A program made the translations under genes and the position numbers. Below are positions 21,363 through 64,000 of a stretch of 64,000 bases of DNA, piece after piece. Below the pieces are notes generated by a model. It was not told where the DNA came from. It was given only the letters and a program-made list of their open reading frames with translations, and did no database searches. The stretch lies in assembly GCA_965223295.1 (NCBI GenBank), contig CBDCWC010000003.1:224001-288000 (forward strand), read 5' to 3'. Origin of the DNA: Nitrospirales bacterium. Its GTDB lineage: Bacteria > Nitrospirota > Nitrospiria > Nitrospirales > UBA8639. The first letter of the stretch is position 1. Every line of letters starts with the position of its first letter.

Positions 21363-22418
21363 ATGAGAATTCTTGTCACAGGTCATAAAGGGTACATTGG
21401 CACCGTCATGGTGCCCATGCTCATTCAGGAAGGGCATGATGTGGTTGGATTAGACAGCGATCTGTTTGCAGCTTGCGCTTTTGGGGAGCCGATGCAAACA
21501 ATTCCTGATATTCAAAAAGATATCCGTGATATTAAACCCTCAGATGTAGAGGGCTTTGATGCAATCATTCATCTTGCTGGCCTCTCCAATGATCCACTAG
21601 GGAATTTAGATCCACAATTGACCTACGAAATCAATCATGAGGCATCAGTCCGACTAGCAAAACTAGCGAAAGAAGTGGGGGTACCGCGGTTTCTTTTTTC
21701 GTCTTCCTGCAGCAATTATGGGGCCGGAGGAGAAGACTTGCTCAATGAAGAGTCGGCTTTCAATCCTGTCACTCCCTATGGGGAATCCAAGGTCCGTGTA
21801 GAACAGGACGTCTCCAAGTTGGCAGATTCATCCTTTACGCCAACCTTTCTGCGTAACGCCACCGTGTATGGGGTTTCACCCAGGCTTCGCTTTGATCTAG
21901 TCTTGAACAACCTCGTCGCATGGGCCTACACCAGCGGACGAGTGTATATGAAGAGTGACGGAACACCGTGGCGACCTATCGCACACATCGATGACATCTC
22001 ACGGGCCTTCGTTGCCGTCCTCCATGCCCCACTTGAGCTTGTCCATAATGAGGCTTTCAACGTTGGAGTGTCAGAAGAAAACTACCGGATTAGAGAATTA
22101 GCAGACATCGTGAAAGATACGGTACCAGGCTGTGAGATTGAATATGCAAAAGACGGAGGTCCAGATACACGTTGCTATCGTGTGGATTTCAGTAAGATTA
22201 AGCGCGTGCTACCCGATTTTCGCCCACAATGGAATGCCCGGGATGCTGCGAAACAATTGTACGAGACATACAAAAGAGTAGGACTTCGCCTTGAAGATTT
22301 TGAAGGTATCCGCTACAAGCGAATCGATCACATTAAGCATCTCTTAGAAACAAAAAAGCTGAATAATTCATTGCGATGGGAAACAACCACTGCTGACAAT
22401 GAGAAAAGCAAGGCGTAA
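21363..22418 (+). CDS. NAD-dependent epimerase/dehydratase (extended SDR)
   Basis: LVTGHKGYIG, SSCSNYG, YGESK (YxxxK). Confidence 0.92.
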   Translation: MRILVTGHKGYIGTVMVPMLIQEGHDVVGLDSDLFAACAFGEPMQTIPDIQKDIRDIKPSDVEGFDAIIHLAGLSNDPLGNLDPQLTYEINHEASVRLAKLAKEVGVPRFLFSSSCSNYGAGGEDLLNEESAFNPVTPYGESKVRVEQDVSKLADSSFTPTFLRNATVYGVSPRLRFDLVLNNLVAWAYTSGRVYMKSDGTPWRPIAHIDDISRAFVAVLHAPLELVHNEAFNVGVSEENYRIRELADIVKDTVPGCEIEYAKDGGPDTRCYRVDFSKIKRVLPDFRPQWNARDAAKQLYETYKRVGLRLEDFEGIRYKRIDHIKHLLETKKLNNSLRWETTTADNEKSKA

Positions 22419-22479
22419 TTCACTTCTAGGCGGGAATGTTTTGCGTCATTTCCAATAACGGTAACGAGCGAAAAGCTTA

Positions 22480-26301: not shown

Positions 26302-27102
26302 ATGAAAGTGGTTCTGTTTTGTGGCGGATTAGGAATGCGGTTACGGGAGTACTCCGAATCGATTCCCAAACCGATGGTGAATATTGGCTATAGACCGATA
26401 CTTTGGCATGTCATGAAATACTACGCGCATTATGGACATAAAGACTTCATTCTCTGTCTTGGCTACCGAGCCGATGTGATTAAAGAATATTTTTTGCAAT
26501 ATAACGAATGCCTCTCAAATAATTTCACCATAAAAAATGGCGGAAAATCCCTGGAACTCCTGAATACCGACACCCAAGACTGGAACATCACATTCGTGGA
26601 CACCGGTCTAAAATCTAATATCGGGCAGCGCTTGAAAGCCGTCGAATCCTACATCGGGGAGGATGAGGTGTTTTTAGCAAACTATAGTGACAGCCTGACA
26701 GATTGTCCCCTACCCGACATTCTTGACCATTTCTCACAAAGCCAGAAAACAGCAAGCTTTCTCTGTGTGCGACCACCGCATAGCTTTCATGTTGTCCACA
26801 TGAAAGGCGACGGGCAAGTCACAGACGTCCGTCATGTTGGTGATTCTGGCCTATGGATTAACGGTGGGTTTTTTGTGCTTCGAAGAGAAATTTTTCAATA
26901 TATGAACGAGGGTGAAGAGTTGGTCTGTGAACCTTTTGGGCGACTTGTCGAACAAGATAAGCTCGCAGCATATCGATATAACGGATTTTGGGCAACCATG
27001 GATACGTTTAAAGAAAAGCAACATCTAGACGAACTAGATGCAAGCGGAGAGGCTCCGTGGGAACTCTGGAGGGCCTCTGGTCCAAAGCACAATCATGCTT
27101 AG
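26302..27102 (+). CDS. rfbF: Glucose-1-phosphate cytidylyltransferase
   Basis: GGLGMRLRE...PKPMV, ILWHVMKYY, VDTG, WINGGFFV, GFWATMDT. Confidence 0.88.
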   Translation: MKVVLFCGGLGMRLREYSESIPKPMVNIGYRPILWHVMKYYAHYGHKDFILCLGYRADVIKEYFLQYNECLSNNFTIKNGGKSLELLNTDTQDWNITFVDTGLKSNIGQRLKAVESYIGEDEVFLANYSDSLTDCPLPDILDHFSQSQKTASFLCVRPPHSFHVVHMKGDGQVTDVRHVGDSGLWINGGFFVLRREIFQYMNEGEELVCEPFGRLVEQDKLAAYRYNGFWATMDTFKEKQHLDELDASGEAPWELWRASGPKHNHA

Positions 27103-27748
27103 TTTGCATTTCAATACGAAACAGGACTCGCCGTTTAACGTGTTGTGTCTTGGTGCCCATGCTGACGACATAGAAATAGGATGCGGAGCAACCATCCTTA
27201 AATTGATCCAAGACTACGAGAATGTCAATTTTTACTGGGTCGTCTTCAGCGCGGATCACATAAGAGCTGAAGAAGCACGAGCAAGCGCTGACCTGTTTCT
27301 CAAAGATGCCCAGAGCCACCATGTTGTCGTGAAAACATTTCGAGAATCGTTTTTTAATTTCATCGGTGCCGAAATTAAAGAATATTTCGAGCGACTCCGT
27401 AAAGAATTTGAGCCCGATCTGATTTTGACTCATTATCGCAACGACCTCCATCAGGATCATCGAACAATTTCTGAACTGACATGGAATACCTATCGAGACC
27501 ACACAATTTTAGAGTACGAAATTCCTAAATACGATGGAGATTTAGGGAAACCAAATGTGTTTATGTCTCTGAATGAGAAGCAGTGCAAAAAAAAAGTAAG
27601 CTATATTATGAACACCTTCAAGTCCCAACAGGATAAAGGATGGTTTACAGAGGACACATTTCTCTCAATCATGAGACTTCGCGGTATTGAATCCAACGCA
27701 TCAAGTCACCACGCCGAATCATTCTATAGCCGCAAGCTTGTTCTTTAA
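27095..27748 (+). CDS. PIG-L/LmbE family deacetylase
   Basis: GAHADDIEIGCG and DLHQDH metal motifs. Likely start ATG 27095. Confidence 0.88.
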   Translation: MLSLHFNTKQDSPFNVLCLGAHADDIEIGCGATILKLIQDYENVNFYWVVFSADHIRAEEARASADLFLKDAQSHHVVVKTFRESFFNFIGAEIKEYFERLRKEFEPDLILTHYRNDLHQDHRTISELTWNTYRDHTILEYEIPKYDGDLGKPNVFMSLNEKQCKKKVSYIMNTFKSQQDKGWFTEDTFLSIMRLRGIESNASSHHAESFYSRKLVL

Positions 27749-27827: not shown

Positions 27828-29330
27828 ATGCGTCTAAAGACATTCCGGTCTGGACTCGCAGTCACGGCGTCCAACACCATTCTTAGTCTTTTCCAAGCAC
27901 TCACAGCAATTTTTTTAGCAAGACTTCTGGACCCTCAGGACTTCGGTCTGATGAGTTTAGGCGGTGCATTGGTTGGAATCTGCGGGTTACTGTCTGGGAT
28001 GGGTATGAAGGCCGCTGTCATCGCTTCAGCAGAGGAAACCAACAAAGTTGCCTTTCATGCTCTTCTCATCACCACAACGATCGGATGCCTTCTGACAGGA
28101 CTGATTATTAGTTTCGCTCCCCAATATGCCTGGTTTTTTGGCGGGAGCGACCTAATAGGAATCTGCCAGTGGATGGCCGTCATCGTCCTATTCAATGCTA
28201 TGGGCCTCATACCAGATGCTATCCTATCGAAGGGTATGATGTTCGGTCGGCGGATTATTCCAGCGACAGTGAGCTCTCTTAGCTATATGATCACCTCTGT
28301 AGGGCTAGCGTACGCTGGCTTTGGAGTATGGAGCCTCGTCTATGGCCGTCTGGTCAAATCATTTACGGCTCTAAGCGTGAACCTCCTTGTCTGTCCGACG
28401 TTGCGGTGGCTGGTACCACACAAATGGGACCCCATTGTCGCCACAACTCTAACTAAATTTGGCACAGCGACTCTAGGGACTGGCCTCGTACAGTATGGCT
28501 ATGAATATGGCGACAAACTTATTGTGGGTAAACTTTTGGGAACTACCCAGCTCGGCTTCTATAGTCAAGCCTATACGATCTCAGCGCTCACCGTCGGTCA
28601 AATTTCCATGGTTACAAACTCTGTCTTGTTTCCCGCTTACGCAACCATAAGGGAAGATAAGGCACGCCTAGCAAAGGCATTCCTTGACAGCCTTCAAATG
28701 CTATCGACTATTACCATCCCCCTTTCGATGGGACTGTTTACCTTAGCACCTGAATTGGTGATTTTTCTTATTGGAGAAAAATGGCGTGACTCAATACCGC
28801 TTCTTCAAATCTTTGCCTTTCTTGGCCTTATCCGCCCACTCTCTGGAGCGGCCTCTCCATTGTTTTTAGCTATCAACCGACCCCAATATAATTTTGGAGG
28901 CGCGATAATTCAAAGCACCGCTATGGTCATTCTTGTTATTCTACTCGTACCCTGGAAGGTTGAGGGCATTGCTCTTGCTCTTGTCAGCGCTTTTGCTATT
29001 GGTCTAATTTACAATTCGTTCATGGTATGTCGGAAAACAGCACTCCCAATCACATTGCAAGACTATCTTGTTCAAATTTCACCTGCGATTGTTGGGACAA
29101 GTATAATGATGGGAGTAGTGTGGACCTTAAAAGAGCCACTACTGAATGTGGTTGATGGCACACACAATTTCCTCTCTCTCGCAATCCTGATTATAGCCGG
29201 AGTGTTGAGTTATAGCCTGACTCTCTATGCCATCAAACCAAGCATAATTTTTGAAATGATAAATCTGGCCTTATCAGGAATTGGATTACGCGGCGAAAGT
29301 CATAACGGGAAGAGGGCAGAAAAGTCATAA
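27828..29330 (+). CDS. wzx: Polysaccharide flippase (Wzx/WzxC-like)
   Basis: LARLLDPQDFG, LGTTQLGFYSQAY, LFPAY, GEKW; many TM segments. Confidence 0.9.
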   Translation: MRLKTFRSGLAVTASNTILSLFQALTAIFLARLLDPQDFGLMSLGGALVGICGLLSGMGMKAAVIASAEETNKVAFHALLITTTIGCLLTGLIISFAPQYAWFFGGSDLIGICQWMAVIVLFNAMGLIPDAILSKGMMFGRRIIPATVSSLSYMITSVGLAYAGFGVWSLVYGRLVKSFTALSVNLLVCPTLRWLVPHKWDPIVATTLTKFGTATLGTGLVQYGYEYGDKLIVGKLLGTTQLGFYSQAYTISALTVGQISMVTNSVLFPAYATIREDKARLAKAFLDSLQMLSTITIPLSMGLFTLAPELVIFLIGEKWRDSIPLLQIFAFLGLIRPLSGAASPLFLAINRPQYNFGGAIIQSTAMVILVILLVPWKVEGIALALVSAFAIGLIYNSFMVCRKTALPITLQDYLVQISPAIVGTSIMMGVVWTLKEPLLNVVDGTHNFLSLAILIIAGVLSYSLTLYAIKPSIIFEMINLALSGIGLRGESHNGKRAEKS

Positions 29331-29410: not shown

Positions 29411-30641
29411 TGACCTCTCCCCCAAAATCGACGACAGCTTAAAACTGGAGTACGATGGCCGTTTCGGCAGTCCGAACGGAAAGGAGGGGGGCCATGAAGC
29501 GGTCCAAATTCTCGGAGGAGCAAGTCATCTATGCCCTTCGGCAAAGCGAAGGGGGCACACCTGTAGGCGACGTCTGTCGCCAACTGGGCGTCAGTGAGGC
29601 CACATTGTATGCCTGGAAAAAGAAGTATGCGCATCTCGGAGTGACGGAACTCCGCCGGTTGCGGCAGTTGGAGGAAGAAAACACGCGATTGAAGCGCTTG
29701 GTGGCCGATCTCTCATTGGATAAACATATGCTGTCGGAGGCCTTACGAAAAAAAGCCTGAGGCCCGCCCGCCGCCGAGAATTGGCCCAGTGGTTTCAGCA
29801 GACATTCTCGGTGAGTGGTGTGCGGGCCTGTCGCTTAGCGCAGCTTACTCGATCGGCCTGGTATCGACGAAGCCAGGCGAAAGACCAATCCGCCTTACGT
29901 CTCCGTATTCGTGATCTCGCACATGCCCGTCCACGGTTTGGGTACCTGCGGATTTGGGTCCTCTTGCGGCGGGAAGGGTGGGTCGTGAATCGGAAGCGCG
30001 TGCGGCGCCTCTATCGTCTGGAAGGGTTACAACTTCGGATGCGGGTCCGCCGACGCAAACACATGGCGTTGCACCGCGGGCCGGCACCCACTCCGGTACA
30101 ACCGAATGAGCGCTGGAGTATGGATTTTGTGCATGATACGCTGGGCGATGGCCGCCCATTTCGGATGCTCACGGTCGTCGACAACTGGAGTCGGCACGCA
30201 CCCGTACTTGAGGCGGGTTTTCGAATGTCAGGCGAGAGCGTTGGGCAGGCGCTTGATCGAGTCGTCGGCGCTAGTGCTCGACCGCGTTCATCACGGTAGA
30301 TCATGGCACCGAATTCCAATCGCGAGCGTTGGAAGAGTGGGCGTATCGGCAAGGGGTTCAGCTCGACTTCATTCGCCCCGGCAAACCAGTCGAAAACGCC
30401 TTCATTGAATCGTTTAACGGGCGATTGCGAGACGAGTGTCTCAACGTCCACCAGTTCCGGTCACTCGATGACGCGCGAGCGATCATTGAAGTCTGGCGGC
30501 TGGACTATAATCAACACCGTCCCCATAGCTCACTCGGGCATCTGACACCGAATGAGTTTTTGAACCAACATCAGGAGAGCCAGGCAGCTGAAGTCACCAT
30601 CTATTCTGGTTAAGATCTGTCTCAAAACGGGGGCAACGTCG
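29411..30641 (+). mobile_element. IS3-family element (IS407-like), copy A, with orfB frameshifted
   Basis: IRL TGACCTCTCCCCCAAAATCGACGACAG; IRR CTGTCTCAAAACGGGGGCAACGTCG. orfA 29494-29760 ends in an A7G slippery site. orfB has WSMDF and [17 protein letters not shown] but is broken by a 1-nt deletion at ~30289 ([10 protein letters not shown] motif out of frame). No TSD seen. Confidence 0.93.
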
Positions 30642-30692
30642 GACAGCCGAAAACTCTACTTTACAACTGTCCGCTTGACGGGGAAGCGTACA

Positions 30693-32966
30693 ATGTCACA
30701 ACTATTCATACTAAGACTACTTTGCTATTTACTGCCCGTAGCCGCATTTTTAACCCTATGGTTCCCTTTCTTTGCACATTACTATGTATCCGACGTTACG
30801 TTAAGTTACAAAACAGTGAACGAGGCTCGAAAGTTAGCTCCAGATTCAATTCTGAAAGAATTAAAGACAATGTCGCTTTTCCTCGCTGAACAAAAAACCA
30901 GTAAAGACGTGGCTCAGTCTGCCGCCAAATTATTAAAAGGGGAGACGCAAATCGTAGGAAAGCCTCCAATGAAAGTTGGCTCTCCTCTTTTTGAGCCAAG
31001 TGATTTAACAGACGGACCTCTTGCCCAAAAACTTGGAATTGCCGTATTGATGATACCCGACCTACTCATCGATGCATATGAGTTGACTAATCATGACGAA
31101 TTTCTTGTTGCAGCTAGAAATTATATTGTGAAATTTGCGTTATACGAGAAGAGCAATTGGCTCCCGAAAGGATTACTCTGGAATGATCATGCCATTGCTG
31201 AACGTATTTTTGTGCTGACTAAATTTTGGTATCACTACCGAAAGCATACACTTTACAACCAAGAAATTGCTCATCATATATTACAATTAGTCTCTCGTAG
31301 TGGTCAGTTTCTGGCGAAGGATTCTCATTTCACGTTTGAAACAAACCATGGAATTTTGCAAAACTTGGCCCTCTGGCATCTTTCCATTGCCTTTCCCACC
31401 ATTCCTAATACTGAAGGCTATAAGAAAACAGCTCGAAAGAGAATGACTGAACAGATGGCATACTATATTAACGAAAACGGAGTCATCCTTGAACACTCGG
31501 CAGGATATCACAAAGTTGGGCTTCGCCTTATCGGTATGGCGATGAGATATTTGACTTTGTTAAACGAAAACTTGCCTACTGAATGGATCCTAAAATATGA
31601 GAAGGCAAAGAATGTGTACAAACAATTGAGACGTTTTGATGGAACATTGCCCATCTTCGGAGATAGTGCCACCGGCCTTCCAGACGAGCTTGGACCACTC
31701 GTATCCAACATCGACCAACAAAAACGTATGGGCTCGCTACGCCACAAAAAAGTTTGGGGAGCTCCACAACCCTATAACCTTTTTCCAGTCGCAGGATATG
31801 CTGTATGGTGGGATGGATTAAGACACTGGCCAAAAGTGAAAAAGACAAATCAGACTGTATTGATCTGGTCCCATTTTCCTGGTCATGCCCACAAACATGC
31901 AGATGAAATGAGTATCATCATGTGGGCCGGTGGGCAAAGGTGGTGGACAAACATAGGATATTGGCCATTTGGAGATCCAGGGCGCCTTAAGGCCTTATCA
32001 TGGGATGGATCTAATGCACCACATTCTCTGAATGAAACTGCCAGCAGTCGGCGGACCACCAAAATTCTCAATCATGCACGGTCAGACTCTATAACATTTA
32101 TCGACCTTGAACGCACCAATTCAGATGGATATTCGGCCCGTCGGCAAGTAGTATATGTCGTCCCAAGCCTTTGGTTCATTCTTGACAATGTTTCCGGTAA
32201 TACAGGAAGTCGAACAGTTTGGAATACAGCTAGCAACATCCATCTGATTGAAAATAGAGGCTCGGGTGCCGTGAAATCATACACCCTTCACTCAAGGAAA
32301 ACTGATGCAAATCTAGAAACGTTTTTTTGGGGATCAGCAGGGAGTAAAATTACTACTGTTCAAGGGGGCATGGAACCCTTTGCTGGGTGGGAAGTTCTTG
32401 CATTCAGACCAACACCTACTTCTGCCGTTGTTGTCGAGCAACCGCCCAAAGAGGCATGGTCAGCTGCGGCCTGGGCTTGGCATAGCAATGAAACCGAGGG
32501 TTCTATCCAATTTCACACCGCCCCTTCGATGAAGGATTGGAATGGTGCTGAAAAATGGGAAGTCGACCTCCCAATTAAATCTGGAGGGATGACTATCGCA
32601 CGAAAGGGCAAGCAAATAGTTCTTCAAGATTTTCATGACAAAACCAAGATTCACACCTTAAAGCTCAGCCCACCGCCAAACATTCGTGAAAACGTCGCCA
32701 ACATACACAGAAGCTTTTCAAAAACCGCAAGCAAGCACCAAAAATTCAAGGATTTTTATGGCTATCGGCTAAGATTTTCTTGGATATTATGCGCTCTTTT
32801 GATACTACAAGAAGTATTGTTTTTCGCCGTTAAAAAATCCCAAAAGACACAGCGCGCTAACATCCTAGCCCTCATAGCTCTAACTTGGACGGTTACTGTT
32901 GCACTAACCACATTCTTTAATCAGATTTTAGAATTCTCCAAAAATGTAGCTGAAGGGCTAAACTAG
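30693..32966 (+). CDS. Heparinase II/III-family polysaccharide lyase-like protein, membrane anchored
   Basis: WNDHAIAER, TNHGILQNLAL, EHSAGYH, FGDS, HAHKHADEMS. One N-terminal and two C-terminal hydrophobic segments. Confidence 0.8.
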   Translation: MSQLFILRLLCYLLPVAAFLTLWFPFFAHYYVSDVTLSYKTVNEARKLAPDSILKELKTMSLFLAEQKTSKDVAQSAAKLLKGETQIVGKPPMKVGSPLFEPSDLTDGPLAQKLGIAVLMIPDLLIDAYELTNHDEFLVAARNYIVKFALYEKSNWLPKGLLWNDHAIAERIFVLTKFWYHYRKHTLYNQEIAHHILQLVSRSGQFLAKDSHFTFETNHGILQNLALWHLSIAFPTIPNTEGYKKTARKRMTEQMAYYINENGVILEHSAGYHKVGLRLIGMAMRYLTLLNENLPTEWILKYEKAKNVYKQLRRFDGTLPIFGDSATGLPDELGPLVSNIDQQKRMGSLRHKKVWGAPQPYNLFPVAGYAVWWDGLRHWPKVKKTNQTVLIWSHFPGHAHKHADEMSIIMWAGGQRWWTNIGYWPFGDPGRLKALSWDGSNAPHSLNETASSRRTTKILNHARSDSITFIDLERTNSDGYSARRQVVYVVPSLWFILDNVSGNTGSRTVWNTASNIHLIENRGSGAVKSYTLHSRKTDANLETFFWGSAGSKITTVQGGMEPFAGWEVLAFRPTPTSAVVVEQPPKEAWSAAAWAWHSNETEGSIQFHTAPSMKDWNGAEKWEVDLPIKSGGMTIARKGKQIVLQDFHDKTKIHTLKLSPPPNIRENVANIHRSFSKTASKHQKFKDFYGYRLRFSWILCALLILQEVLFFAVKKSQKTQRANILALIALTWTVTVALTTFFNQILEFSKNVAEGLN

Positions 32967-45898: not shown

Positions 45899-46194
45899 GT
45901 ATCTTGTGACGCTGCATGATCTTGGCAATCCGGTTCTTGCCCACGCACTCACCCACCTCGCGTAGATCGCAAAGAATGCGGGGGGACCCATACGTGCGGC
46001 CACTCGCTTCATACGACTCCCGAATGAGTCCCAGCAAACGATCATCGTCTTGAGACCGTTGTGAGGGAGGGCGCTCCAACCATGCATCATAGCCACTGCG
46101 CGAGACCCCAAATAGGCGACACATCGGCTGGATCGCGTACCGGTTGTGATGTTGCAAGATGAACGCGTACCTCACGCCGGGTTTTTCGCGAAGT

Positions 46195-54144: not shown

Positions 54145-54233
54145 CGCTACACGCGTCCCTTATATTTTTAATTTGTATTGTAACAATTTTCTTCTTGTAT
54201 ATTCGAAGAATATTTAGAATTTTACCTTATTCT

Positions 54234-57200
54234 TCAAGGCACAGGATTATTCCTAAAGTAATCAACAGAAGCCGTAAAAGCTGGGGACTGAGTTGGATGG
54301 TTCCCCACATGTAGTCCTACTTCCGTTACAGCTAAATTATATATAAAGGAAGTTGCGGCAACCCAACTTTGCCCGTCGTCTGAATAGTCTAACGTCCACA
54401 GATCACCATTTCGATTCACCCTCAAGTAAAGTGGTGCGGTCAATGCCACGGACGTACTAGTTTTTACTGAAGCACTACTTCCACTCGCAATCGTAGCGGC
54501 AAAAATCTTCACATTCGTTCCATCATGATGAACCTCATATCGAAGCAACCTTTCATCAGTCTCTTGCACCACCAGCCCTTGAATTTCATAGCGAGTTGTC
54601 ACAGGCGAGTCAAACTTCGCCTCGATTTCAAAATCCGTGTTGCTGGCCCCTTGCAGAAGCCGGGGAGCATACATTTGTCCGGGCCAGAGATTGTGGGAAC
54701 TTCCTCCAGGAACTGCGACTTCCAGATGGGTACCTGTGAGCGCAAACGATGAATCATCAGACAATGGAGCACCTTCTAAGGGGTCAAAAAACCGCCAAAA
54801 GGAATTCAATGTCGTCGACGTAAACTCGTCCGAAAGAATAGTTGGTGTGTCCACAGCAATCATCACTTCATCAAAGGTACTTAACGCCGTATCGTCGGCT
54901 GTTAACCGCAGCACATACACCCCTGCCTGCGTAAAGCTCGCCGTCGTATCCACGGCCGTCGCATCCCCAAACGTCACCACGCCCGGCCCGCTCGTCATAC
55001 TCCACACCGTGGTCAAGGTCGGAGGCGTCGGGAGCCCATCATCTGCCACCGTCCCATCCAACGTCGCCACGTTCGGCAACGTCACCGCCTGGTCCGCCCC
55101 CGCAGCCACCGTCGGCGCTTGGTTCGTCGCGGCCACCGTCACTGTCAGCTCATCAAAGGTACTTAACGCCGTATCGTCGGCTGTTAACCGCAGCACATAC
55201 ACCCCTGCCTGCGTAAAGCTCGCCGTCGTATCCACGGCCGTCGCATCCCCAAACGTCACCACGCCCGGCCCGCTCGTCATACTCCACACCGTGGTCAAGG
55301 TCGGAGGCGTCGGGAGCCCATCATCTGCCACCGTCCCATCCAACGTCGCCACGTTCGGCAACGTCACCGCCTGGTCCGCCCCCGCAGCCACCGTCGGCGC
55401 TTGGTTCGTCGCGGCCACCGTCACTGTCAGCTCATCAAAGGTACTTAACGCCGTATCGTCGGCTGTTAACCGCAGCACATACACCCCTGCCTGCGTAAAG
55501 CTCGCCGTCGTATCCACGGCCGTCGCATCCCCAAACGTCACCACGCCCGGCCCGCTCGTCATACTCCACACCGTGGTCAAGGTCGGAGGCGTCGGGAGCC
55601 CATCATCTGCCACCGTCCCATCCAACGTCGCCACGTTCGGCAACGTCACCGCCTGGTCCGCCCCCGCAGCCACCGTCGGCGCTTGGTTCGTCGCGGCCAC
55701 CGTCACTGTCAGCTCATCAAAGGTACTTAACGCCGTATCGTCGGCTGTTAACCGCAGCACATACACCCCTGCCTGCGTAAAGCTCGCCGTCGTATCCACG
55801 GCCGTCGCATCCCCAAACGTCACCACGCCCGGCCCGCTCGTCATACTCCACACCGTGGTCAAGGTCGGAGGCGTCGGGAGCCCATCATCTGCCACCGTCC
55901 CATCCAACGTCGCCACGTTCGGCAACGTCACCGCCTGGTCCGCCCCCGCAGCCACCGTCGGCGCTTGGTTCGTGCTAGAGGCAGTATTTCTGAAATAATC
56001 GACCGAAGCCGTAAAAGCTGGGGACTGCGAAGGGTCAGCATGATGGTTCCCAGAAAAAATACCTACTCGGTTCACAACCATTGTGTGACTAAAGGAAGTG
56101 GCTGTTGTCCAACTCTGCCCATCATCTGAATAGTCGAGCGTCCACAGATCTCCAGACCGATTTACCCGTAGATAGTACGGTGCAGTCAACGCCACAGAAG
56201 CATTAGTTTTAATAGATGCATTCCCTCCATTGGTGATCGTAGTGGCAAAAATTCGGGCAGTTGATCCATTATGGTAGACATCGTAACGAATAAGCGTCTG
56301 ATTGGTTTCTTGTACCACTAACCCTTGAATTTGAAACCGTTCATTTACACTTGAGTCAAATTTTGCTTCGATTTCAAAATTCATATTGCTGGCATTTTGC
56401 AAAAGCCGAGGAGCAAAAAGATTAGGCGGGTATAGATCATGCGAAGATCCTCCCGGAACTGCAATCTCTAAGTGATCGCCTGTGAGGTTGAACGACGAAT
56501 CATCTGCAGACGACCCTCCAGCCAAGGGATCATAGAAACTCCAAAACGAATTCAGCGTAGGAGATGAGAATTCATCAGATTGAATTGCCGAACCGACGAT
56601 GATGTTCATTGTTGCTTCGTTAGACGTATCACCCTCCGTGTCAGCTATCGTATACGTAAAACTGTCAGATCCGATAAATCCAGTATTCGGGGTATAAGTA
56701 ATTTCTCCAGTTGTTGGATTTATGATCGTCGCCCCATTCTTTGTTCCACGAATCACTGTCACGGTAGCAGGATCTAAAGTCTGTCCATTAGCATCATCAT
56801 TGCTTAATACGTTCAACACTACTGGAGTATCACTGACTGTGGCGCCTGAATCATCGAAGGCTGCAGGAGTATCCCCGATAGCAATGAAATTTGTGGCTCC
56901 AAAGGTTACATTAGCCCTATAGGCAACGAAAAGAAGAGAGCCTATAGGTTGAGGAGGGTTATTCAATGCCTGAATAAGAGAACCAGAACTTTCTGGTTGC
57001 CCATCTTCCCACACTTTTAATGTATACAACACTCCCCCTGTGACAGCCTGTGTACGTGATCGGAAGTTATAGGTTACACCTGGAACTAAGGTGAACCCGC
57101 TATCATCGACCGCTAGACGAATCTCGCTAGTTCCTATCCAATTCGAAATTTCAAGCCGCTCTGGGCCGACGGCAGGACGCACACGATACCATGCCAACGC

Positions 57201-59432
57201 TCCCATCGGAGCACCAGTAAGTGGTTGGTTTGTAACTGAAGATTCGGTGGAGTGCCCTCTCCATCCATGCGCTAACCCAACCGCCGCGCTATTGGTGTGG
57301 GTAAAGTTTGTGATCGTGATCTGTGTCTCAACTTCATAGTTTTCCCAACTCGACATATCACCAATAGCAAGAAGACGATCGTAGCCAGGTTCGATAATGC
57401 GCACCGAATCTGCCTGGGCTGAATCTATACGCCATTTTCCATCCACGACTTGTGCTAAATTGAGTATCTCACTCGTGGTCGTTGCCTGTGTCCAATCGAT
57501 TGAATAGGGTAATGGCCACGTCACTCCAGGACTATAATTGACAGAAACATTCTTGGTGGTCACTTCCGAGTCCTGATCTATAGCCGTAAGTTTTACTGTG
57601 TTGTTACCCACTACAAAATCATCGGCATCAATGTCCGCGTTAAAATCCCCAGTTTCTTGAAGTCGAAAACCATCACTCCCAATAGAAAGGGGAACGGAGG
57701 GTCCACCATTTAGAGAATAGGTTAGTGCCAGCGAGGAGGTGGGACCATTTGGATCCGAAACATTACCCACAATATTTATCCATTCCTGAGCCCGTCCAAC
57801 GTGACCAAAATTCTGATTCGTAGAATGCCAAACATCTATAATAGGAGCTGTGCTACTCGTTGCTGTGACCATAACCGTCACAGTGGCCACATTTGACGTA
57901 TCTCCGTCTGTATCATCCACCGTATACGTAAAAACATCCATCCCGACAAAGCCCAGGTTAGGTGTATAAGAAACGGCTCCAGTCGTTTGATTAACAACTG
58001 TCGATCCATTCGGCGGATCACTTGCCACTACTGTGGTTACATCAATCGTCTGACCGTTAGCTTGATCATTAGCGAGCACCACAAAATTTCCCACTGGCGT
58101 GTCTTGTGAAGTACTTATTCCATCATCGACCGCAATAGGAGCCGCCATATTACTTGAAACCGTTGCAGTCACTGTCGCCGCATTCGAAGTATCCCCGTCG
58201 GTATCGTCCACCGTATATGTAAAGACATCTGTTCCAACAAAGCCTACATCAGGAGTATAGGTTATGGTGCCCGTAGAGACATTCACGACTGCCGTACCAT
58301 TGACTGGATCGCTTGCCGCCACCGTCGTCACATTAATGGTCTGCCCATTAAGTTGATCATTATTTAACACCGCCACCTCAACCCCTAGTGTGTCTTGCTG
58401 GGTGTTGACCGTATCATCTACGGCGATGGGAGCGGCCGAACTATTAGTTACTGTGACCGTAACCGTTGCAGCATTCGATGTGTCTCCCTCAGTATCATCT
58501 ACAATGTAAGTAAAAGAATCGACTCCTACAAAACCCACATCAGGGGTGTAAGTAAGATTTCCCGTAGTGGCATTTACGTCAACCGTTCCATTAGGCGGAT
58601 CATTTGCCACCACGGTCGTCACATCAATGGTCTGCCCATTAGCATTATCATTAGCTAGAACATCTATCTCCTCCGGAGTATCCTGTTGAGTAGCGACCGA
58701 GTCATCAACGGCAATGGGAGAGACCAAGCCCGTATTCCGAAAATAATCGACTGAAGCCGTGAAGGCTGGGGATTGCGTGGGATGATTGCCTGTATGTATC
58801 CCAACCTCAGTAACGATAAGATTATGTGTGAAGGAAGTTGCCGTCACCCAGCTTTGCCCATCGCCTGAGTAATCAAGAGTCCAGACACTGCCACTTCGAT
58901 TTACCCGAAGATAGTACGGCGCAGGCAAGGATATGGGAGCGTTGGTTTTTATAGAGGCACTGCTGCCATTTGTGATCGTCGCGGCAAAGATTTTGACGTT
59001 TGCCCCATCGTGGTGAATCTCATACCGAAGCAAGGTTTCATCGGTTTCTTGTACGACCACTCCCTGAATTTCGTATCTGGTTGTCACTGGAGAATCAAAT
59101 TTGGCTTCGATCTCTAAATCAGTATCACTCGCCGCTTGGAGGACCCGTGGAGCCCACATCTGCCCGGGCCAGAGATTATGCGAACTTCCCCCTGGCACCG
59201 CGATTTCCAGATGAGTACCTGAGAGTGCAAACGACGAATCATCAGACGACGGAGCATTAGCTAGAGGATCGTAAAACCGCCAAAAGGAGTTTAGCGTTGG
59301 CGATGTAAATTCATCGGAGAGTATAATATTGCCAGCTGCTCCGCTGAATGACAGCTGTACAATAATAGAAACGAAACAAAGTAACAGCAGACCTGACCAT
59401 AAGAAAAAACTGTGTCCTGCATGTTTAGACAT
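54234..59432 (-). CDS. Large secreted multidomain protein (1732 aa): three ConA/DUF1349-like beta-sandwich domains, four Ig/cadherin-like repeats, four PKD-like repeats
   Basis: Signal peptide; SDEF.S.TLNSFW...AFTASVDYFRN three times; PIAVDD...VLAND...TYTP..GFVG.D.FTY four times; NQAPTV.AGADQ four times. Confidence 0.9.
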   Translation of the reverse strand: MSKHAGHSFFLWSGLLLLCFVSIIVQLSFSGAAGNIILSDEFTSPTLNSFWRFYDPLANAPSSDDSSFALSGTHLEIAVPGGSSHNLWPGQMWAPRVLQAASDTDLEIEAKFDSPVTTRYEIQGVVVQETDETLLRYEIHHDGANVKIFAATITNGSSASIKTNAPISLPAPYYLRVNRSGSVWTLDYSGDGQSWVTATSFTHNLIVTEVGIHTGNHPTQSPAFTASVDYFRNTGLVSPIAVDDSVATQQDTPEEIDVLANDNANGQTIDVTTVVANDPPNGTVDVNATTGNLTYTPDVGFVGVDSFTYIVDDTEGDTSNAATVTVTVTNSSAAPIAVDDTVNTQQDTLGVEVAVLNNDQLNGQTINVTTVAASDPVNGTAVVNVSTGTITYTPDVGFVGTDVFTYTVDDTDGDTSNAATVTATVSSNMAAPIAVDDGISTSQDTPVGNFVVLANDQANGQTIDVTTVVASDPPNGSTVVNQTTGAVSYTPNLGFVGMDVFTYTVDDTDGDTSNVATVTVMVTATSSTAPIIDVWHSTNQNFGHVGRAQEWINIVGNVSDPNGPTSSLALTYSLNGGPSVPLSIGSDGFRLQETGDFNADIDADDFVVGNNTVKLTAIDQDSEVTTKNVSVNYSPGVTWPLPYSIDWTQATTTSEILNLAQVVDGKWRIDSAQADSVRIIEPGYDRLLAIGDMSSWENYEVETQITITNFTHTNSAAVGLAHGWRGHSTESSVTNQPLTGAPMGALAWYRVRPAVGPERLEISNWIGTSEIRLAVDDSGFTLVPGVTYNFRSRTQAVTGGVLYTLKVWEDGQPESSGSLIQALNNPPQPIGSLLFVAYRANVTFGATNFIAIGDTPAAFDDSGATVSDTPVVLNVLSNDDANGQTLDPATVTVIRGTKNGATIINPTTGEITYTPNTGFIGSDSFTYTIADTEGDTSNEATMNIIVGSAIQSDEFSSPTLNSFWSFYDPLAGGSSADDSSFNLTGDHLEIAVPGGSSHDLYPPNLFAPRLLQNASNMNFEIEAKFDSSVNERFQIQGLVVQETNQTLIRYDVYHNGSTARIFATTITNGGNASIKTNASVALTAPYYLRVNRSGDLWTLDYSDDGQSWTTATSFSHTMVVNRVGIFSGNHHADPSQSPAFTASVDYFRNTASSTNQAPTVAAGADQAVTLPNVATLDGTVADDGLPTPPTLTTVWSMTSGPGVVTFGDATAVDTTASFTQAGVYVLRLTADDTALSTFDELTVTVAATNQAPTVAAGADQAVTLPNVATLDGTVADDGLPTPPTLTTVWSMTSGPGVVTFGDATAVDTTASFTQAGVYVLRLTADDTALSTFDELTVTVAATNQAPTVAAGADQAVTLPNVATLDGTVADDGLPTPPTLTTVWSMTSGPGVVTFGDATAVDTTASFTQAGVYVLRLTADDTALSTFDELTVTVAATNQAPTVAAGADQAVTLPNVATLDGTVADDGLPTPPTLTTVWSMTSGPGVVTFGDATAVDTTASFTQAGVYVLRLTADDTALSTFDEVMIAVDTPTILSDEFTSTTLNSFWRFFDPLEGAPLSDDSSFALTGTHLEVAVPGGSSHNLWPGQMYAPRLLQGASNTDFEIEAKFDSPVTTRYEIQGLVVQETDERLLRYEVHHDGTNVKIFAATIASGSSASVKTSTSVALTAPLYLRVNRNGDLWTLDYSDDGQSWVAATSFIYNLAVTEVGLHVGNHPTQSPAFTASVDYFRNNPVP
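54868..55973. repeat. Intragenic tandem repeat, about 3.9 copies of a 282-bp (94-aa) unit
   Basis: Marker CATCAAAGGTACTTAACG recurs at 54869, 55151, 55433 and 55715. No differences between copies seen by eye. Confidence 0.95.
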
Positions 59433-60285: not shown

Positions 60286-61452
60286 GTGCGAACTTTGAAT
60301 ATGTTTTTGCCATTTCACGTCCCTGATATTGGGGACGAAGAAATCTGTTCGGTTGTTGAAACCCTCCGTTCTGGTTGGTTAACCACAGGATCAAAGGTCA
60401 AGCAGTTTGAGAGAGAATTTGCTGAACAGCTAGGAGTGAGCAATGCCGTGGCAGTCAATTCTTGCACAGCTGCTTTACATCTTGCCTTAGAAGCTATAGG
60501 CCTCAGCGAAGGAGACGAAGTCATCATTCCAACAATGACGTTCGCTGCAACGGCAGAGGTCGTACACTATTTTAAAGCCAAACCCGTGTTGGTGGATTGT
60601 CGAAAAGACACGCTTAATCTGAATGTTGAGCTAATTGAACGCGCAATAACCCCTAAGACCAAAGCGATTATCCCAGTTCATTTTGCTGGGCAACCCTGTG
60701 CCATGGATCAAATCCTGGCCATAGCTCATTCTCACCACCTTAAAGTCATTGAAGATGCTGCCCATGCCCTTCCCGCCAGGTATCAAGGAAAAAGGGTTGG
60801 AACCTTAGGAGATATCACCTGCTTTTCTTTTTATGCCACAAAAACGATGACCACAGGAGAAGGTGGCATGGCTACCACTGAGAATCCGGAATGGGCTCAA
60901 CGGATGCGCATGTTGAGTCTTCACGGCATTTCACAGGATGCATGGAAACGCTACACCCCAGGAGGTTCTTGGTATTACGAAATCCGCCACCCTGGGTACA
61001 AATATAATCTAACCGATATTGCCGCAGCCTTGGGTATTCCACAACTCCGGAAATGCAACGAATTTAAGAGCACTCGGCAGCATATCGCCTCCCTCTACAA
61101 TGAGGGATTCAGTCGGGTACCTGAAATCACAACGCCGCATGTGGACAAAAACATCGACCATGCCTGGCACCTGTATGTCATTCAGTTGAATCTCGAACAA
61201 TTGAGAATCGGGCGAAATGAATTTATGGATCAATTAAAGAAACATGGAATAGGGACCAGCGTTCACTTCATTCCCTTACATCTTCATCCTTATTATCGAG
61301 ATACCTTTGGCTATTTGCCAGAAAACTTTCCCGAAGCCAGCGCAGTGTTCGAACGTATTCTTTCTCTCCCGATCTACCCTAAAATGAGTGACGAAGATGT
61401 TCGCCATGTCATTCAAACAGTTTCTACCCTCATTAAAGAGTATCGCCGATGA
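60286..61452 (+). CDS. DegT/DnrJ/EryC1/StrS PLP-dependent sugar aminotransferase (start may be 60301)
   Basis: SGWLTTG, NSCTAALHLAL, PVHFAG, EDAAHA, SFYATKTMTTGEGG. Confidence 0.95.
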   Translation: MRTLNMFLPFHVPDIGDEEICSVVETLRSGWLTTGSKVKQFEREFAEQLGVSNAVAVNSCTAALHLALEAIGLSEGDEVIIPTMTFAATAEVVHYFKAKPVLVDCRKDTLNLNVELIERAITPKTKAIIPVHFAGQPCAMDQILAIAHSHHLKVIEDAAHALPARYQGKRVGTLGDITCFSFYATKTMTTGEGGMATTENPEWAQRMRMLSLHGISQDAWKRYTPGGSWYYEIRHPGYKYNLTDIAAALGIPQLRKCNEFKSTRQHIASLYNEGFSRVPEITTPHVDKNIDHAWHLYVIQLNLEQLRIGRNEFMDQLKKHGIGTSVHFIPLHLHPYYRDTFGYLPENFPEASAVFERILSLPIYPKMSDEDVRHVIQTVSTLIKEYRR

Positions 61453-64000
61453 TGAAACGTGCTTTTGATATACTTGCAGCAGGTTTAGGACTTATCCTAG
61501 GTGCACCTATATTTCTTCTCCTCGCTTTCCTCGTCAAAATTGATTCACCGGGGCCTGTGTTCTTCAAACAAATTCGGGTTGGACAAGGTTTTCGGCATTT
61601 TTCTATTTTAAAATTTCGCACCATGCACGCGAATGTCTCAAAGGAAGGTGGAGAACTCACAATCGGACAAGATCCACGGATCACAGGGCTCGGAAAAGTC
61701 TTACGTCAGCTTAAGCTTGACGAACTTCCACAACTTTTGAATGTCATAAGGGGCGAGATGAGTCTCGTGGGGCCGAGACCCGAAGTTCCCCAATACGTTG
61801 ACCAGTTTCGTGAAGACTATGCGGAAATTTTAGAGGTTCGCCCAGGCTTAGTGGACCTTGCTTCCCTTAAGTATATTGATGAACAGATGATACTCGGAAA
61901 TGCCATAAATCCTGAAGAGGAATATCTCAAGACGATTCTCCCGGACAAAATCCGATTGGCTAAGTTATACGTTGCGCATTCCTCCTTTCTCATCGACGTA
62001 ACAATTATTCTGCAGACCTTACTTAAAATCGTTGGGATTCAAACCAACCTCTTAGTTGACAGTACGCAAAAAGACCGGGAAGAAATCTTCGTTCTACCGA
62101 ACTCTTCCATTCGTACTCATATTTTAAAGCATCGACATAAACTTGTCGTGACATTGGATTTAGGGCTTATCATATTAGCTAACTATATGGCTTTCTGGTT
62201 GAGATTTGATGGGCATATTCCATCAGAGATAAGCCACATGTTTTTCCAACTCTTCCCTATTCTCCTTCTGGTTAGAGGAGTTTCTTTTTCCTTATTTCGA
62301 TTGAACGAAGGACTTTGGCGGTATATCGGACTTTGGGATGTCAAAAACATCATTTGGGGAGTCCTTTCCGGAACCATTGTATATTTTCTTATTGTTCATT
62401 TCGGACTCGGATTTACTGAGTACCCTCGATCAGTGTTTGTCATTGACAGTATGTTATTGATCAGCCTTCTTGTTGGCATTCGACTCGTGGTCCGTCTATT
62501 TCGGATAGACAGAACCTCTAAACGCTCAAAACGTGTCTTGATTATCGGAGCAGGAAATACCGGAGAAAAAATTGTTCGAGAAATGCAAGAACATCCATCA
62601 TGTGCCTATTCACCAATTGGATTTCTTGACGATGATCCGTTGAAATTAGGACAGAGAATTCATGGAGTGAAAGTCCTTAGCACGTTAAAAGACCTTCCCA
62701 GAATTCTGGAGCTAGAAAATCCTGCAGAAATCTTAGTAGCGTTATCCCAATCAAATACCAATACTATCCGAAGCATCGTGAGTACCTTGGAGCCTTATAA
62801 GATTCCAATCAAAACCCTGCCAAAATTAGAAGACATTCTCAATGGAAAAGTCACAATTGGCCAAATCAGAGACTTAAAAATCGAAGACTTGCTCCAACGT
62901 CCCCCCGTGGGTATTGCGCGACAGATCCTTCCCCATTTTATCAAGGGCCGGCGAATCATGGTTACTGGTGCGGGAGGCTCTATTGGTTCGGAACTGTGCC
63001 GTCAGATTGTGTCATATAGCCCCGAAGCACTCATTCTGTATGAACGACATGAGAATAGTCTCTATCAGATTGCAAGTGAGCTGACCGACAGTGGACATTC
63101 TACCATCACACATGAGGTTTTAGGCGACATCACTGATTCTCTTCATCTCAAGGAAACGATGCAGAAGCATAAACCTCATGTCGTTTTCCATGCAGCAGCA
63201 CATAAGCACGTCCCGTTAATGGAATCGAATCCCTGCGAAGCCTTTAAAAATAATATCCTTGGAACCCACCGCGTCGCAAAAGCCGCCCAACAAGCTGGAG
63301 TAGAACGATTTGTCTTGATTTCGACAGACAAGGCTGTGAATCCCACCAGCGTGATGGGAGCCACAAAGCGAGGAGCCGAATTGGTCGTGAGAAGCTTGGC
63401 TCAAACAAGCCAAACGTGCTTTTTGACTGTCCGATTTGGAAATGTACTAGGGAGCAACGGAAGCGTGGTGCCAAGATTTCAGAAACAAATTCGTGCAGGC
63501 GGACCGGTAACCGTGACACACCCCGACGTTCGTCGGTACTTCATGTCAATTCCCGAAGCCGTTGAATTGGTACTACAAACCTCAACACTCAGTGAGCAAG
63601 GAGCTCTTTACGTATTAGATATGGGTCAACAAATAAAGCTGTTAGATTTGGCACGCCACCTCATTCGTCTCTCTGGATTTCTCCCTGAAAAGGAAATTCC
63701 TATCCAGTTTGTGGGTCTTCGACAAGGAGAAAAGCTAGAAGAAGAGCTAGTAGGAACTGGCGAAAAAACAGACCGTTCCCCAATAGAGAAAATTTTCCAA
63801 ATAAAATCTGAAACTTCTCAAGACTTCACATTACTCAATCAGGTACTCGAAACCTTTAAAAATGTAAGCTTTTTGAACTCTCCATCGTTCGTGATACATC
63901 AATTGCAACAACTTGTTCCAACATTTTTACACTCTGAGAATGACAGGGTAGTTGAAAACTGGGAACCCTGCATAGAAAATGTTCACAACGATTCGAAAAC
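61449..64000 (+). CDS. Fusion of a monotopic phosphoglycosyltransferase (PglC-like) and a CapD/PglF-type UDP-HexNAc 4,6-dehydratase; 3' partial
   Basis: Manual translation: MMKRAFD...KFRTM...DPRIT...KLDELPQLLNV..GEMSLVGPRP continues in frame into LDLGLIILANYMAFWLRFD...LIIGAG...VTGAGGSIGSELCRQ...HAAAHKHVP...ISTDKAVNPTSVMGATK...RFGNVLGSNGSV. No stop seen up to 64000. Confidence 0.9.
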   Translation, partial: MMKRAFDILAAGLGLILGAPIFLLLAFLVKIDSPGPVFFKQIRVGQGFRHFSILKFRTMHANVSKEGGELTIGQDPRITGLGKVLRQLKLDELPQLLNVIRGEMSLVGPRPEVPQYVDQFREDYAEILEVRPGLVDLASLKYIDEQMILGNAINPEEEYLKTILPDKIRLAKLYVAHSSFLIDVTIILQTLLKIVGIQTNLLVDSTQKDREEIFVLPNSSIRTHILKHRHKLVVTLDLGLIILANYMAFWLRFDGHIPSEISHMFFQLFPILLLVRGVSFSLFRLNEGLWRYIGLWDVKNIIWGVLSGTIVYFLIVHFGLGFTEYPRSVFVIDSMLLISLLVGIRLVVRLFRIDRTSKRSKRVLIIGAGNTGEKIVREMQEHPSCAYSPIGFLDDDPLKLGQRIHGVKVLSTLKDLPRILELENPAEILVALSQSNTNTIRSIVSTLEPYKIPIKTLPKLEDILNGKVTIGQIRDLKIEDLLQRPPVGIARQILPHFIKGRRIMVTGAGGSIGSELCRQIVSYSPEALILYERHENSLYQIASELTDSGHSTITHEVLGDITDSLHLKETMQKHKPHVVFHAAAHKHVPLMESNPCEAFKNNILGTHRVAKAAQQAGVERFVLISTDKAVNPTSVMGATKRGAELVVRSLAQTSQTCFLTVRFGNVLGSNGSVVPRFQKQIRAGGPVTVTHPDVRRYFMSIPEAVELVLQTSTLSEQGALYVLDMGQQIKLLDLARHLIRLSGFLPEKEIPIQFVGLRQGEKLEEELVGTGEKTDRSPIEKIFQIKSETSQDFTLLNQVLETFKNVSFLNSPSFVIHQLQQLVPTFLHSENDRVVENWEPCIENVHNDSK

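Follow-up and report, generated by a model that had tools for sequence, protein, structure and literature searches.

Can a bacterium build a sulfated polysaccharide with enzymes related to those that modify heparan sulfate in animals, and if so, what does it make? The question is raised by a polysaccharide locus in a 3.78-Mb, three-contig Nitrospirales-type genome, in which we analyzed a stretch of 64,000 nucleotides (nt) at C3:224001-288000 (the window; positions without a contig prefix are window positions). An original prediction, made from the DNA letters, had proposed that the genes from position 21363 onward produce a sulfated mimic of a glycosaminoglycan (GAG), with modifications parallel to those of heparan sulfate and trimming by a lyase of its own. 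All of the families it named are in place, namely PIG-L, Sulfotransfer_1, C5-epim_C, Hepar_II_III, AsnB, SGNH, Wzx, Wzy, and five glycosyltransferases (GTs), with Pfam scores above the cut-offs. Our reading, to which we give a probability slightly better than even (about 0.55), is that the locus would make a sulfated, uronate-containing heteropolysaccharide whose uronate is C5-epimerized before export and that this product is not a copy of heparan sulfate. Coordinates of the features are collected in Table 1.

The argument for an L-uronate centers on the C5-epim_C protein, which is encoded by a single-copy gene. Against the Protein Data Bank (PDB), its sequence matches the heparan sulfate C5-epimerase Glce of zebrafish (4pw2; E = 1.7e-16) and human (E = 5.1e-16), and the tyrosines of its EEYP, YDL, and YH motifs align with the catalytic tyrosines of Glce (Y468, Y528, and Y546 of the zebrafish enzyme). 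Two of the three, Y247 and Y258, are invariant in 16 homologs, as are E188 and E189 of the EEYP motif; the tyrosine of that motif lies outside the columns listed as invariant or nearly invariant. The AlphaFold2 (AF2) model (pLDDT 92.4) is an alpha/alpha-barrel as in Glce, and Glce chains make up its top eight Foldseek matches in the PDB (E = 1.7e-10 to 1.0e-09), superposed with a root mean square deviation of 2.4 to 3.7 over 210 to 211 columns; cellobiose 2-epimerases and N-acetylglucosamine (GlcNAc) 2-epimerases follow at E = 8.7e-4 and weaker. The N-terminal beta-hairpin and beta-barrel domains of animal Glce are absent, and the match spans residues 368 to 557 of the 585-residue chain. By sequence and model, the protein probably converts glucuronate (GlcA) to iduronate (IdoA) or interconverts an analogous uronate pair.

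The site of action would differ from that in animals. Our hydropathy script finds neither a signal peptide nor any other hydrophobic segment in the epimerase or in the sulfotransferase, and both are therefore predicted to act in the cytoplasm and not on a finished polymer. Gene fusions in the C5-epim_C family (3083 representative clusters at E ≤ 0.001) tell a similar story. Among 150 listed members there are eight long proteins, five of them fused to GT4 (P0244, P0301, P0306, P0327, and P0363), one fused to Wzx (P0338), and one with no other domain; no heparinase fusion occurs among these eight. The GT4 and Wzx fusions point to action on the undecaprenyl-pyrophosphate-linked repeat unit at the cytoplasmic face, and the uronate is probably epimerized before export, unlike the polymer-level action in the Golgi. 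The remaining long protein, P0351 (1150 residues), consists of two epimerases in tandem. Glce (4pw2, 6hzz) and our protein thus share a Pfam family, an alpha/alpha-barrel domain, and aligned active-site tyrosines, but the bacterial enzyme has only 333 residues, is devoid of the N-terminal beta domains, and is predicted to be cytoplasmic rather than luminal, with a lipid-linked repeat unit rather than a finished polymer as its substrate.

Sulfate would be added by an enzyme that uses 3'-phosphoadenosine-5'-phosphosulfate (PAPS). The nearest solved relatives of this sulfotransferase are NDST1 (6.1e-19) and 3-OST-1 (about 2e-16). Its segments GPGRTGTS, GEIS, and RDPYERLHS align with the PAPS loop, the glutamate, and the R...S motif of NDST1, presumably the 5'-phosphosulfate-binding loop, the catalytic base, and the 3'-phosphate-binding motif. 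As in NDST and 3-OST (1nst, 1vkj), glutamate replaces the histidine of cytosolic SULT enzymes. The alignment with these enzymes covers about 175 residues, the protein here has no deacetylase domain, and N-sulfation and O-sulfation are indistinguishable from sequence. The original prediction had remarked that the window holds neither a UDP-glucose dehydrogenase nor a PAPS synthesis gene, which is correct; both are found elsewhere in the genome, as a CysN/CysC fusion (1013.5 bits, where the cut-off is 715) and a TuaD-like UDP-glucose dehydrogenase (573 bits), along with two further nucleotide-sugar dehydrogenases. A 435-residue UDP-ManNAc/GlcNAc-dehydrogenase-like gene is present in two copies with near-equal profile scores, at C3:1651370 and C1:45056 (loci L004 and L005); contig C1 (64.8 kb), which bears one of them, may be a plasmid or an unmerged assembly repeat.

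Do the two enzymes serve one pathway? The locus is a strain-specific, Wzx/Wzy-dependent exopolysaccharide (EPS) locus that has been invaded by insertion sequences (ISs). Its pathway set is complete, with an initiating transferase, Wzx, Wzy, and, just past the window, Wza and a co-polymerase/kinase, and all biosynthetic open reading frames (ORFs) are uninterrupted and agree in length with their homologs. The sulfotransferase gene follows the GT4 gene at 34369 after 67 nt and precedes wzy by 301 nt. In another Nitrospirales genome (G092), whose epimerase match has the same coordinates as locus L049, one strand carries within 7 kb homologs of the epimerase (56% identity) and Wzy (49%), a GT4 gene, and a second GT4 gene whose product is 56% identical to that of 34369-35397 and looks like its ortholog; a GNAT gene, a PelZ-like gene (50%), a nucleotide-sugar dehydrogenase gene, and a further GT4 gene lie in the same 7 kb. 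This synteny argues that the genes on either side of the main IS block belonged to one ancestral unit. The nearest homologs of the epimerase (72% identity; WP_447968816) and the sulfotransferase (74%; WP_447968811) are both encoded on a single 4.48-Mb contig of Nitrospira sp. M1, with accessions five apart.

A wider survey took the best 80 of 483 relatives of the epimerase, from many phyla, and their neighbors within 10 kb. A sulfotransferase was found in 5 of the 80 loci, AsnB in 8, a PelZ-like gene in 2, DegT in 29, PglC/PglF-like genes in 41, and relatives of the GT4 at 52140-53351 in 38; these are raw counts. PIG-L and the heparinase-like gene were each near none of the 80. The five loci come from a Rubrobacter (L018), two Anaerolineaceae (L021 and L027), a Phototrophicaceae member (L039), and a Thermoplasmatota archaeon (L067); they hold eight sulfotransferase ORFs, all Pfam-verified, and in three of the five (L021, L039, and L067) a sulfotransferase gene lies directly beside the epimerase gene. 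Two of the three Sulfotransfer_3 matches genome-wide fall in the locus for L021, as do three of five for L039; proximity is less telling for L018, L027, and L067 because those genomes have 13 to 15 Sulfotransfer_3 matches each. The L049 synteny, the Nitrospira sp. M1 homologs, and the X5 contig described below support the assignment of the epimerase and the sulfotransferase to one Wzy-dependent unit despite the IS elements. In L039, the stretch 8062-10970 has the epimerase gene flanked on both sides by sulfotransferase genes, and a third, weaker match is close by on that contig. No description of an epimerase-sulfotransferase combination in a bacterial locus, nor of heparinase-like genes in biosynthetic loci, was found in the literature covered, which extended to neither subscription journals nor supplements.

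The IS elements, like the PelZ-like gene and the export genes past the window, were not part of the original prediction's description of the locus. Two inverted IS3-family copies of 1232 nt, A and B, flank 30643-41142 and are the sole two in the genome; a search for target-site duplications at either, under simple insertion, composite transposition, or inversion, found none. The 1220-nt IS3-family element of the IS block occurs in full at seven more places in the genome. Two public metagenome runs, X5 and X6, contain a strain that is 95 to 99% alike, in which copy A is at the same place. A contig from X5 joins 41092, at the end of the AsnB gene, to 48712, inside the PelZ-like gene, and copy B appears to be missing in the X5-related strain. 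In both runs depth is zero over 42706-44039, where the SGNH gene lies, and almost none over the IS block. A joint of 30700 to 41143 on opposite strands, seen in X5 and X6, was rejected as an artifact of a stretch without copy A, since the loose end beyond it is the wzx-side flank in reverse complement. In contigs of X1 and X3, which are runs of the organism itself, only four other letters separate 44675 from 45904 and the 1220-nt element is skipped; the presence of this IS-free form in the same cultures suggests recent or ongoing transposition.

Two lyase-fold proteins bear on the nature of the polymer. The heparinase-like protein has hydrophobic segments at residues 7 to 34, 699 to 722, and 728 to 749, i.e., one N-terminal and two C-terminal helices, and its large domain is predicted to be periplasmic. 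Its AF2 model (pLDDT 89) has heparinase III (4fnv) as the best Foldseek match (E = 1.8e-20) and also matches PL15/PL17 alginate lyases and human dermatan-sulfate epimerase 1 (6hzn; E = 6.8e-14); a phmmer search against the PDB gave nothing significant, and it was profile and fold searches that yielded the matches. N218, H219, Y272, and H400 are invariant in 41 homologs and align with the N-H pair, tyrosine, and histidine of heparinase III. With the PL12 heparinase III (4fnv, 4mmh) and the dermatan-sulfate epimerase (6hzn) it shares the two-domain architecture of toroid and beta-sandwich as well as those residues, but it differs from heparinase III in its three predicted membrane helices and in being encoded in a biosynthetic locus. 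It is not of the soluble, secreted, degradative type, given the anchoring helices and the gene context, and its fold would be compatible with either lyase or epimerase activity. The family comprises proteins of about 740 residues (723 matches; the best relative is 46% identical), for which no functional study was found in the literature searched. The PelZ-like protein scores 176 bits (E = 9.4e-52) with NCBIfam PelZ, below the equivalog cut-off of 840, and its Atlas neighbors are all annotated "pectate lyase family." Both lyase-fold proteins, together with the AsnB-like amidotransferase, fit a uronate polymer.

A different affiliation emerges for PIG-L, the enzyme on which the N-deacetylation step of the original prediction depended. 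It retains the metal-binding motifs GAHADD and HQDH. In genome G114, of the same genus, one strand carries homologs of the cytidylyltransferase (56%), PIG-L (52%), the epimerase/dehydratase (61%), and the third C-methyltransferase (56%), with the order cytidylyltransferase, PIG-L, epimerase kept (locus L195). Neither the C5-epimerase nor this sulfotransferase is near that cassette, and the G114 genome is without both. PIG-L therefore belongs to the CDP-sugar cassette, the caveat that the original prediction had itself attached. L195 (G114:C48:103000-122900) also sets this cassette, with its C-methyltransferases, beside a GT2 gene (40%) and a PelZ-like gene (33%), from which it follows that EPS-locus cassettes are shuffled in this genus.

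What would such a locus make? We infer each step of the following route from family membership. The PglC-like, PglF-like, and DegT proteins point to a bacillosamine-like primer sugar: the dehydratase and DegT would make a 4-amino-4,6-dideoxy-N-acetylhexosamine (HexNAc), which the fused PglC-like transferase would load onto undecaprenyl phosphate. One GT2 and four GT4 enzymes would then build a repeat unit with at least one uronic acid, drawing on UDP-GlcA from the UDP-glucose dehydrogenase elsewhere in the genome, and the C-methylated CDP-derived sugar of the 21363-27748 cassette, PIG-L included, would probably enter the unit. With an initiating transferase, five GTs, and Wzy, a multi-sugar repeat unit is expected rather than a GAG disaccharide. 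On the lipid-linked unit at the cytoplasmic face, the Glce-like enzyme would invert the uronate at C5 (from GlcA to IdoA or within a comparable pair), the NDST/3-OST-like enzyme would add sulfate from PAPS made by CysN/CysC, and AsnB may amidate a carboxyl group. Wzx would flip the unit and Wzy polymerize it, after which the periplasmic heparinase III-like and secreted PelZ-like enzymes would cut, or further epimerize, the uronate polymer. The predicted product is a sulfated acidic heteropolysaccharide with L-uronate and not a heparan-sulfate-like disaccharide polymer.

Several observations weigh against this reading. Locus L049 and genome G092 have no match to this sulfotransferase (L049 has GNAT and carbamoyltransferase genes), which places sulfation outside the shared core. 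Conversely, when relatives of the sulfotransferase served as anchors, none of 80 metagenome loci, of which only 39 are at least 5 kb long, held a C5-epimerase, and the Nitrospira sp. M1 accessions, rather than coordinates, are what suggests that the pair there is adjacent. No uronate-forming gene lies inside the locus, and a nucleotide-sugar dehydrogenase is within 10 kb of the epimerase in only 16 of the 80 loci. The 5'-phosphosulfate loop has arginine at the position of the NDST1 lysine. None of 114 other family genomes yielded the heparinase-like gene, and it is never near the epimerase elsewhere, so its position is what ties it to the polymer. The IS insertions may be polar or silence the locus, the X5 joint of 41092 to 48712 is flagged "between: not known," and the calls of signal peptides and hydrophobic segments come from a crude, home-made hydropathy script.

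The GAG mimic of the original prediction, with a HexNAc-GlcA backbone, N-deacetylation by PIG-L, N- or O-sulfation, C5-epimerization of the polymer, and trimming by its own heparinase, now seems quite improbable. It would account for the NDST1 N-sulfotransferase domain and Glce being the best solved relatives of the two enzymes, for the intact metal-binding motifs of PIG-L, and for the fold and catalytic residues that the heparinase-like protein keeps, and N-sulfated GAG-like exopolymers have been reported chemically from Pontiella and granular sludge (PMC7356697, PMC10483923). However, the PIG-L gene travels with the CDP-sugar cassette in G114, neither it nor the heparinase-like gene accompanies any of the 80 epimerases, and the epimerase and sulfotransferase are predicted to be cytoplasmic. 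Moreover, an hmmscan of 29 ORFs against Pfam-A found no Exostosin, GT64, or heparosan-synthase-type domain, only GT2 and GT4 types, so a heparosan/EXT-type synthase is missing from the set; priming is by a PglC/PglF/DegT module, and six transferases with Wzy imply a complex repeat unit. What survives of the heparan sulfate parallel is a Glce-like epimerase and an NDST/3-OST-related sulfotransferase in one Wzx/Wzy unit, not the enzyme set as a whole. It is likewise unlikely, though less so, that the C5-epim_C protein has some other alpha/alpha-barrel activity, as a 2-epimerase/isomerase or hydrolase, and that the polymer is sulfated but free of L-uronate. The structural neighbors that follow Glce are 2-epimerases, sugar dehydrogenases are near few of the 80 epimerases, and only one bacterial member of the family is said, by papers citing Raedts 2013, to have been assayed. 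Against this, Glce matches about six orders of magnitude better than the 2-epimerases do, three tyrosines align with the catalytic tyrosines of Glce, and two uronate-type lyase folds and AsnB share the locus.

Another possibility is that ISs have joined unrelated cassettes serving different glycans or that the locus is decaying and makes nothing; we consider this rather unlikely. The locus contains five IS elements or fragments, and the elements seem active, given that one insertion site also occurs without its element in runs of the organism itself; within the family, no other genome (0 of 114) has the heparinase-like gene, and the related strain lacks the SGNH gene. The PIG-L cassette also stands separately in G114. 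Against this reading, L049 binds the epimerase, Wzy, GT4, and PelZ-like genes together. All biosynthetic ORFs are intact, the sulfotransferase gene is set closely between a GT4 gene and wzy, the X5 contig bridges AsnB to the epimerase region, and the Nitrospira sp. M1 accessions are five apart. A Wzy-dependent unit that sulfates and epimerizes its repeat units before export remains the reading that we prefer.

How does a pathway of this kind compare with known systems? Raedts et al. surveyed putative prokaryotic C5-epimerases in O-antigen and capsule clusters in 2011 (PMC3068255), and the epimerase here sits, like those homologs, among the glycosyltransferases of such a cluster. According to that paper, no sulfated or epimerized bacterial GAG was known at the time, and the word "sulfotransferase" is absent from it. 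Synechan, from the xss cluster of Synechocystis PCC 6803, represents a characterized Wzx/Wzy EPS cluster with its own sulfotransferases, many GTs, and export genes partly elsewhere (PMC8205485). It differs in that its sugars are neutral (rhamnose, mannose, galactose, and glucose, plus sulfate), no C5-epimerase, lyase-fold, or AsnB gene is mentioned in the excerpt, and the cluster is cyanobacterial and plasmid-borne with XssQ/R/S regulators (regulators were not looked for here). Sulfated capsule clusters are also known from marine Vibrio (PMC11641403) and Cobetia. Pontiella sulfatireligans F21 has a comparable cluster, in which GT2 and GT4 genes are accompanied by genes for a PF13469-type sulfotransferase and a sugar aminotransferase and whose putative product is a sulfated GAG-like exopolymer (PMC7356697), but it belongs to another phylum and the text has 0 occurrences of "epimerase." The N-glycan pathway of Halobacterium salinarum, with Agl32 and two sulfotransferases, is an earlier prokaryotic case in which IdoA and sulfate occur together on an oligosaccharide that is short and lipid-linked (PMC12624080, PMC13308652, PMC11980604). 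There, however, the product is an archaeal protein glycan and not a bacterial polymer, and Agl32, which resembles cellobiose 2-epimerase, is reported to escape BLAST searches started from Glce or from the bacterial enzyme (PMC12624080, PMC13308652).

The locus matters as a concrete, intact epimerase-sulfotransferase pair in a Wzy unit; similar pairs recur in other phyla, and public sequencing runs under one organism name apparently exist for this bacterium. It makes testable both the existence of bacterial sulfated L-uronates and the action of a Glce-type enzyme on a short lipid-linked substrate, and a soluble bacterial epimerase of 333 residues is of interest for chemo-enzymatic heparin work. 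Sulfated GAG-like polymers have been measured in the matrices of sludge, as part of its EPS, and of marine isolates, and the bacterial genes behind them are called unknown in PMC10483923 and PMC7356697. The pair has been seen in this Nitrospirales-type genome, in Chloroflexota, in a Rubrobacter, and in a Thermoplasmatota archaeon. A bolder proposal would be that a Glce-type epimerase and an NDST/3-OST-type sulfotransferase, paired in several bacterial and archaeal phyla, make sulfated L-iduronate-like residues on lipid-linked units, that this locus is a genetic source of the "sulfated GAG-like" polymers of nitrifying and granular biofilms, and that the animal enzymes descend from such a pair; we regard this as doubtful. 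If the polymer has neither sulfate nor L-uronate, the locus is one more variable EPS cluster. The epimerase gene is rare among relatives: two draws of other genomes from the same genus, 24 and then 48, gave no match, and of 114 other genomes from the family one (G092) did.

Table 1. Features of the EPS locus in window coordinates (strand +, forward; -, reverse;., none assigned). ORFs for the hmmscan (29, all within 21363-64000) were picked from 59 of at least 100 residues overlapping 18000-64000; Pfam calls were judged by curated cut-offs and NCBIfam calls by NCBIfam cut-offs.
Feature	Position	Strand	Evidence and remarks
NAD-dependent sugar epimerase/dehydratase (first cassette gene)	21363..22418	+	Pfam Epimerase 146.6 bits
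Three C-methyltransferase-like genes	22480-23688, 23663-24925, 24970-26247	+	Methyltransf_23 and Methyltransf_14 in all three
Glucose-1-phosphate cytidylyltransferase-like gene	26302..27102	+	TIGR02623 232.5 bits (cut-off 300); Pfam NTP_transferase
PIG-L/LmbE-family deacetylase	27038..27748	+	Pfam PIG-L 51.2 bits; probable start 27095 (internal Met)
Wzx flippase	27828..29330	+	Polysacc_synt_3 219 bits; many hydrophobic segments
IS3-family copy A	29411..30642	+	HTH_Tnp_1 and rve ORFs; inverted repeat of 41143-42374
Membrane-anchored heparinase III-like protein	30675..32966 (database form from 30693)	+	Hepar_II_III_N and Hepar_II_III_C
GT2 glycosyltransferase	33409..34317	+	Glycos_transf_2 110 bits
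GT4 glycosyltransferase	34369..35397	+	Pfam GT4 domains; 56% identity over 333 residues to L049 13515-14513
PAPS-type sulfotransferase, predicted cytoplasmic	35465..36361	+	Sulfotransfer_1 57.4 bits, Sulfotransfer_3 49 bits
Wzy polymerase	36663..37937	+	Wzy_C 39.2 bits; 49% identity over 400 residues to L049 11047-12243
GT4 glycosyltransferase	38079..39170	+	Glycos_transf_1 110 bits
AsnB-like glutamine amidotransferase	39172..41091	+	Asn_synthase 223.8 bits, GATase_7 152 bits
IS3-family copy B	41143..42374	-	Inverted relative to copy A; 1 mismatch in 1232
SGNH/GDSL-like protein	42914..44047	+	Lipase_GDSL 24.9 bits (cut-off 23.6; weak); N-terminal hydrophobic segment
IS block	44088..47353	.	Truncated IS3 fragment, 1220-nt IS3-family element, IS256-family transposase; Pfam rve, HTH_Tnp_1, Transposase_mut
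Secreted pectate-lyase-fold (PelZ-like) protein, C-terminal TSP3 repeats	48217..49650	+	Signal-peptide-like N-terminus
Glce-like D-glucuronyl C5-epimerase catalytic domain	49694..50695	-	C5-epim_C 114.7 bits (cut-off 23.3); 333 residues
Two GT4 genes (second WcaI-like)	50845-52113 and 52140-53351	-	Pfam
Lcl_C-domain protein and 1732-residue repeat adhesin	53473..59432	-	Pfam Lcl_C; Big_9, cadherin-like, PKD, DUF1349
DegT/PseC-type sugar aminotransferase	60286..61452	+	DegT_DnrJ_EryC1 457 bits
PglC-like phosphoglycosyltransferase/PglF-like UDP-HexNAc 4,6-dehydratase fusion	61449..64000	+	Bac_transf 186.9 bits, Polysacc_synt_2 385 bits

Some of the tabulated genes can be characterized further. 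The best NCBIfam match of the epimerase/dehydratase that opens the CDP-sugar cassette is GalE (106 bits, below cut-off). The third C-methyltransferase-like gene additionally encodes a Methyltransf_13 zinc domain, scores 221 bits with Methyltransf_14, and has a homolog of 61% identity in locus L127 besides the one in G114. The AsnB-like protein exceeds the cut-off of NCBIfam TIGR01536 with 402 bits, and the GT4 at 52140-53351 reaches 202.6 bits with the WcaI family, below the cut-off of 276. The Lcl_C and adhesin genes are on the same strand as the GT4-GT4-epimerase run and upstream of it, with gaps of 89 to 149 nt, and the two proteins may be members of the pathway. Within the adhesin gene, 54863-56008 consists of four tandem 282-nt repeats, 92 to 100% identical, that encode Big_9/cadherin-like modules. 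A promoter and terminator scan of 47300-60400 gave fewer sites than in shuffled sequences, and its result was not used.

The PglC-PglF fusion ORF ends beyond the window at C3:288400, with a full length of 983 residues, and the locus extends about 7.7 kb past the window end into export genes: two Wza-like genes, a chain-length determinant, an ATPase, a tyrosine kinase, and an EpsL-like porin. In NCBIfam these genes score best with XrtA/PEP-CTERM families, always below the cut-offs (e.g., 245.9 against 324.5 bits for the ATPase), and by these matches the export genes would be of the XrtA/PEP-CTERM type. Four proteins, namely the adhesin and the Lcl, PelZ-like, and SGNH proteins, were inspected for a PEP-CTERM tail, and none has one.

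Genes 5' of 21363 encode ABC transporters, a deformylase, and STAS proteins and are unrelated to the polysaccharide locus, as is a tyrosinase with two PPC (pre-peptidase C-terminal) domains at 5161-6633. A small operon at 8375-11051, encoding a beta-ketoacyl synthase, an acyl carrier protein, and an LpxD-like hexapeptide acyltransferase, may serve a side pathway to lipid A or to an N-acyl sugar. A 165-nt direct repeat, 83% identical, occurs at 2355-2519 and 6693-6857, in intergenic regions that lie 4.3 kb from each other.

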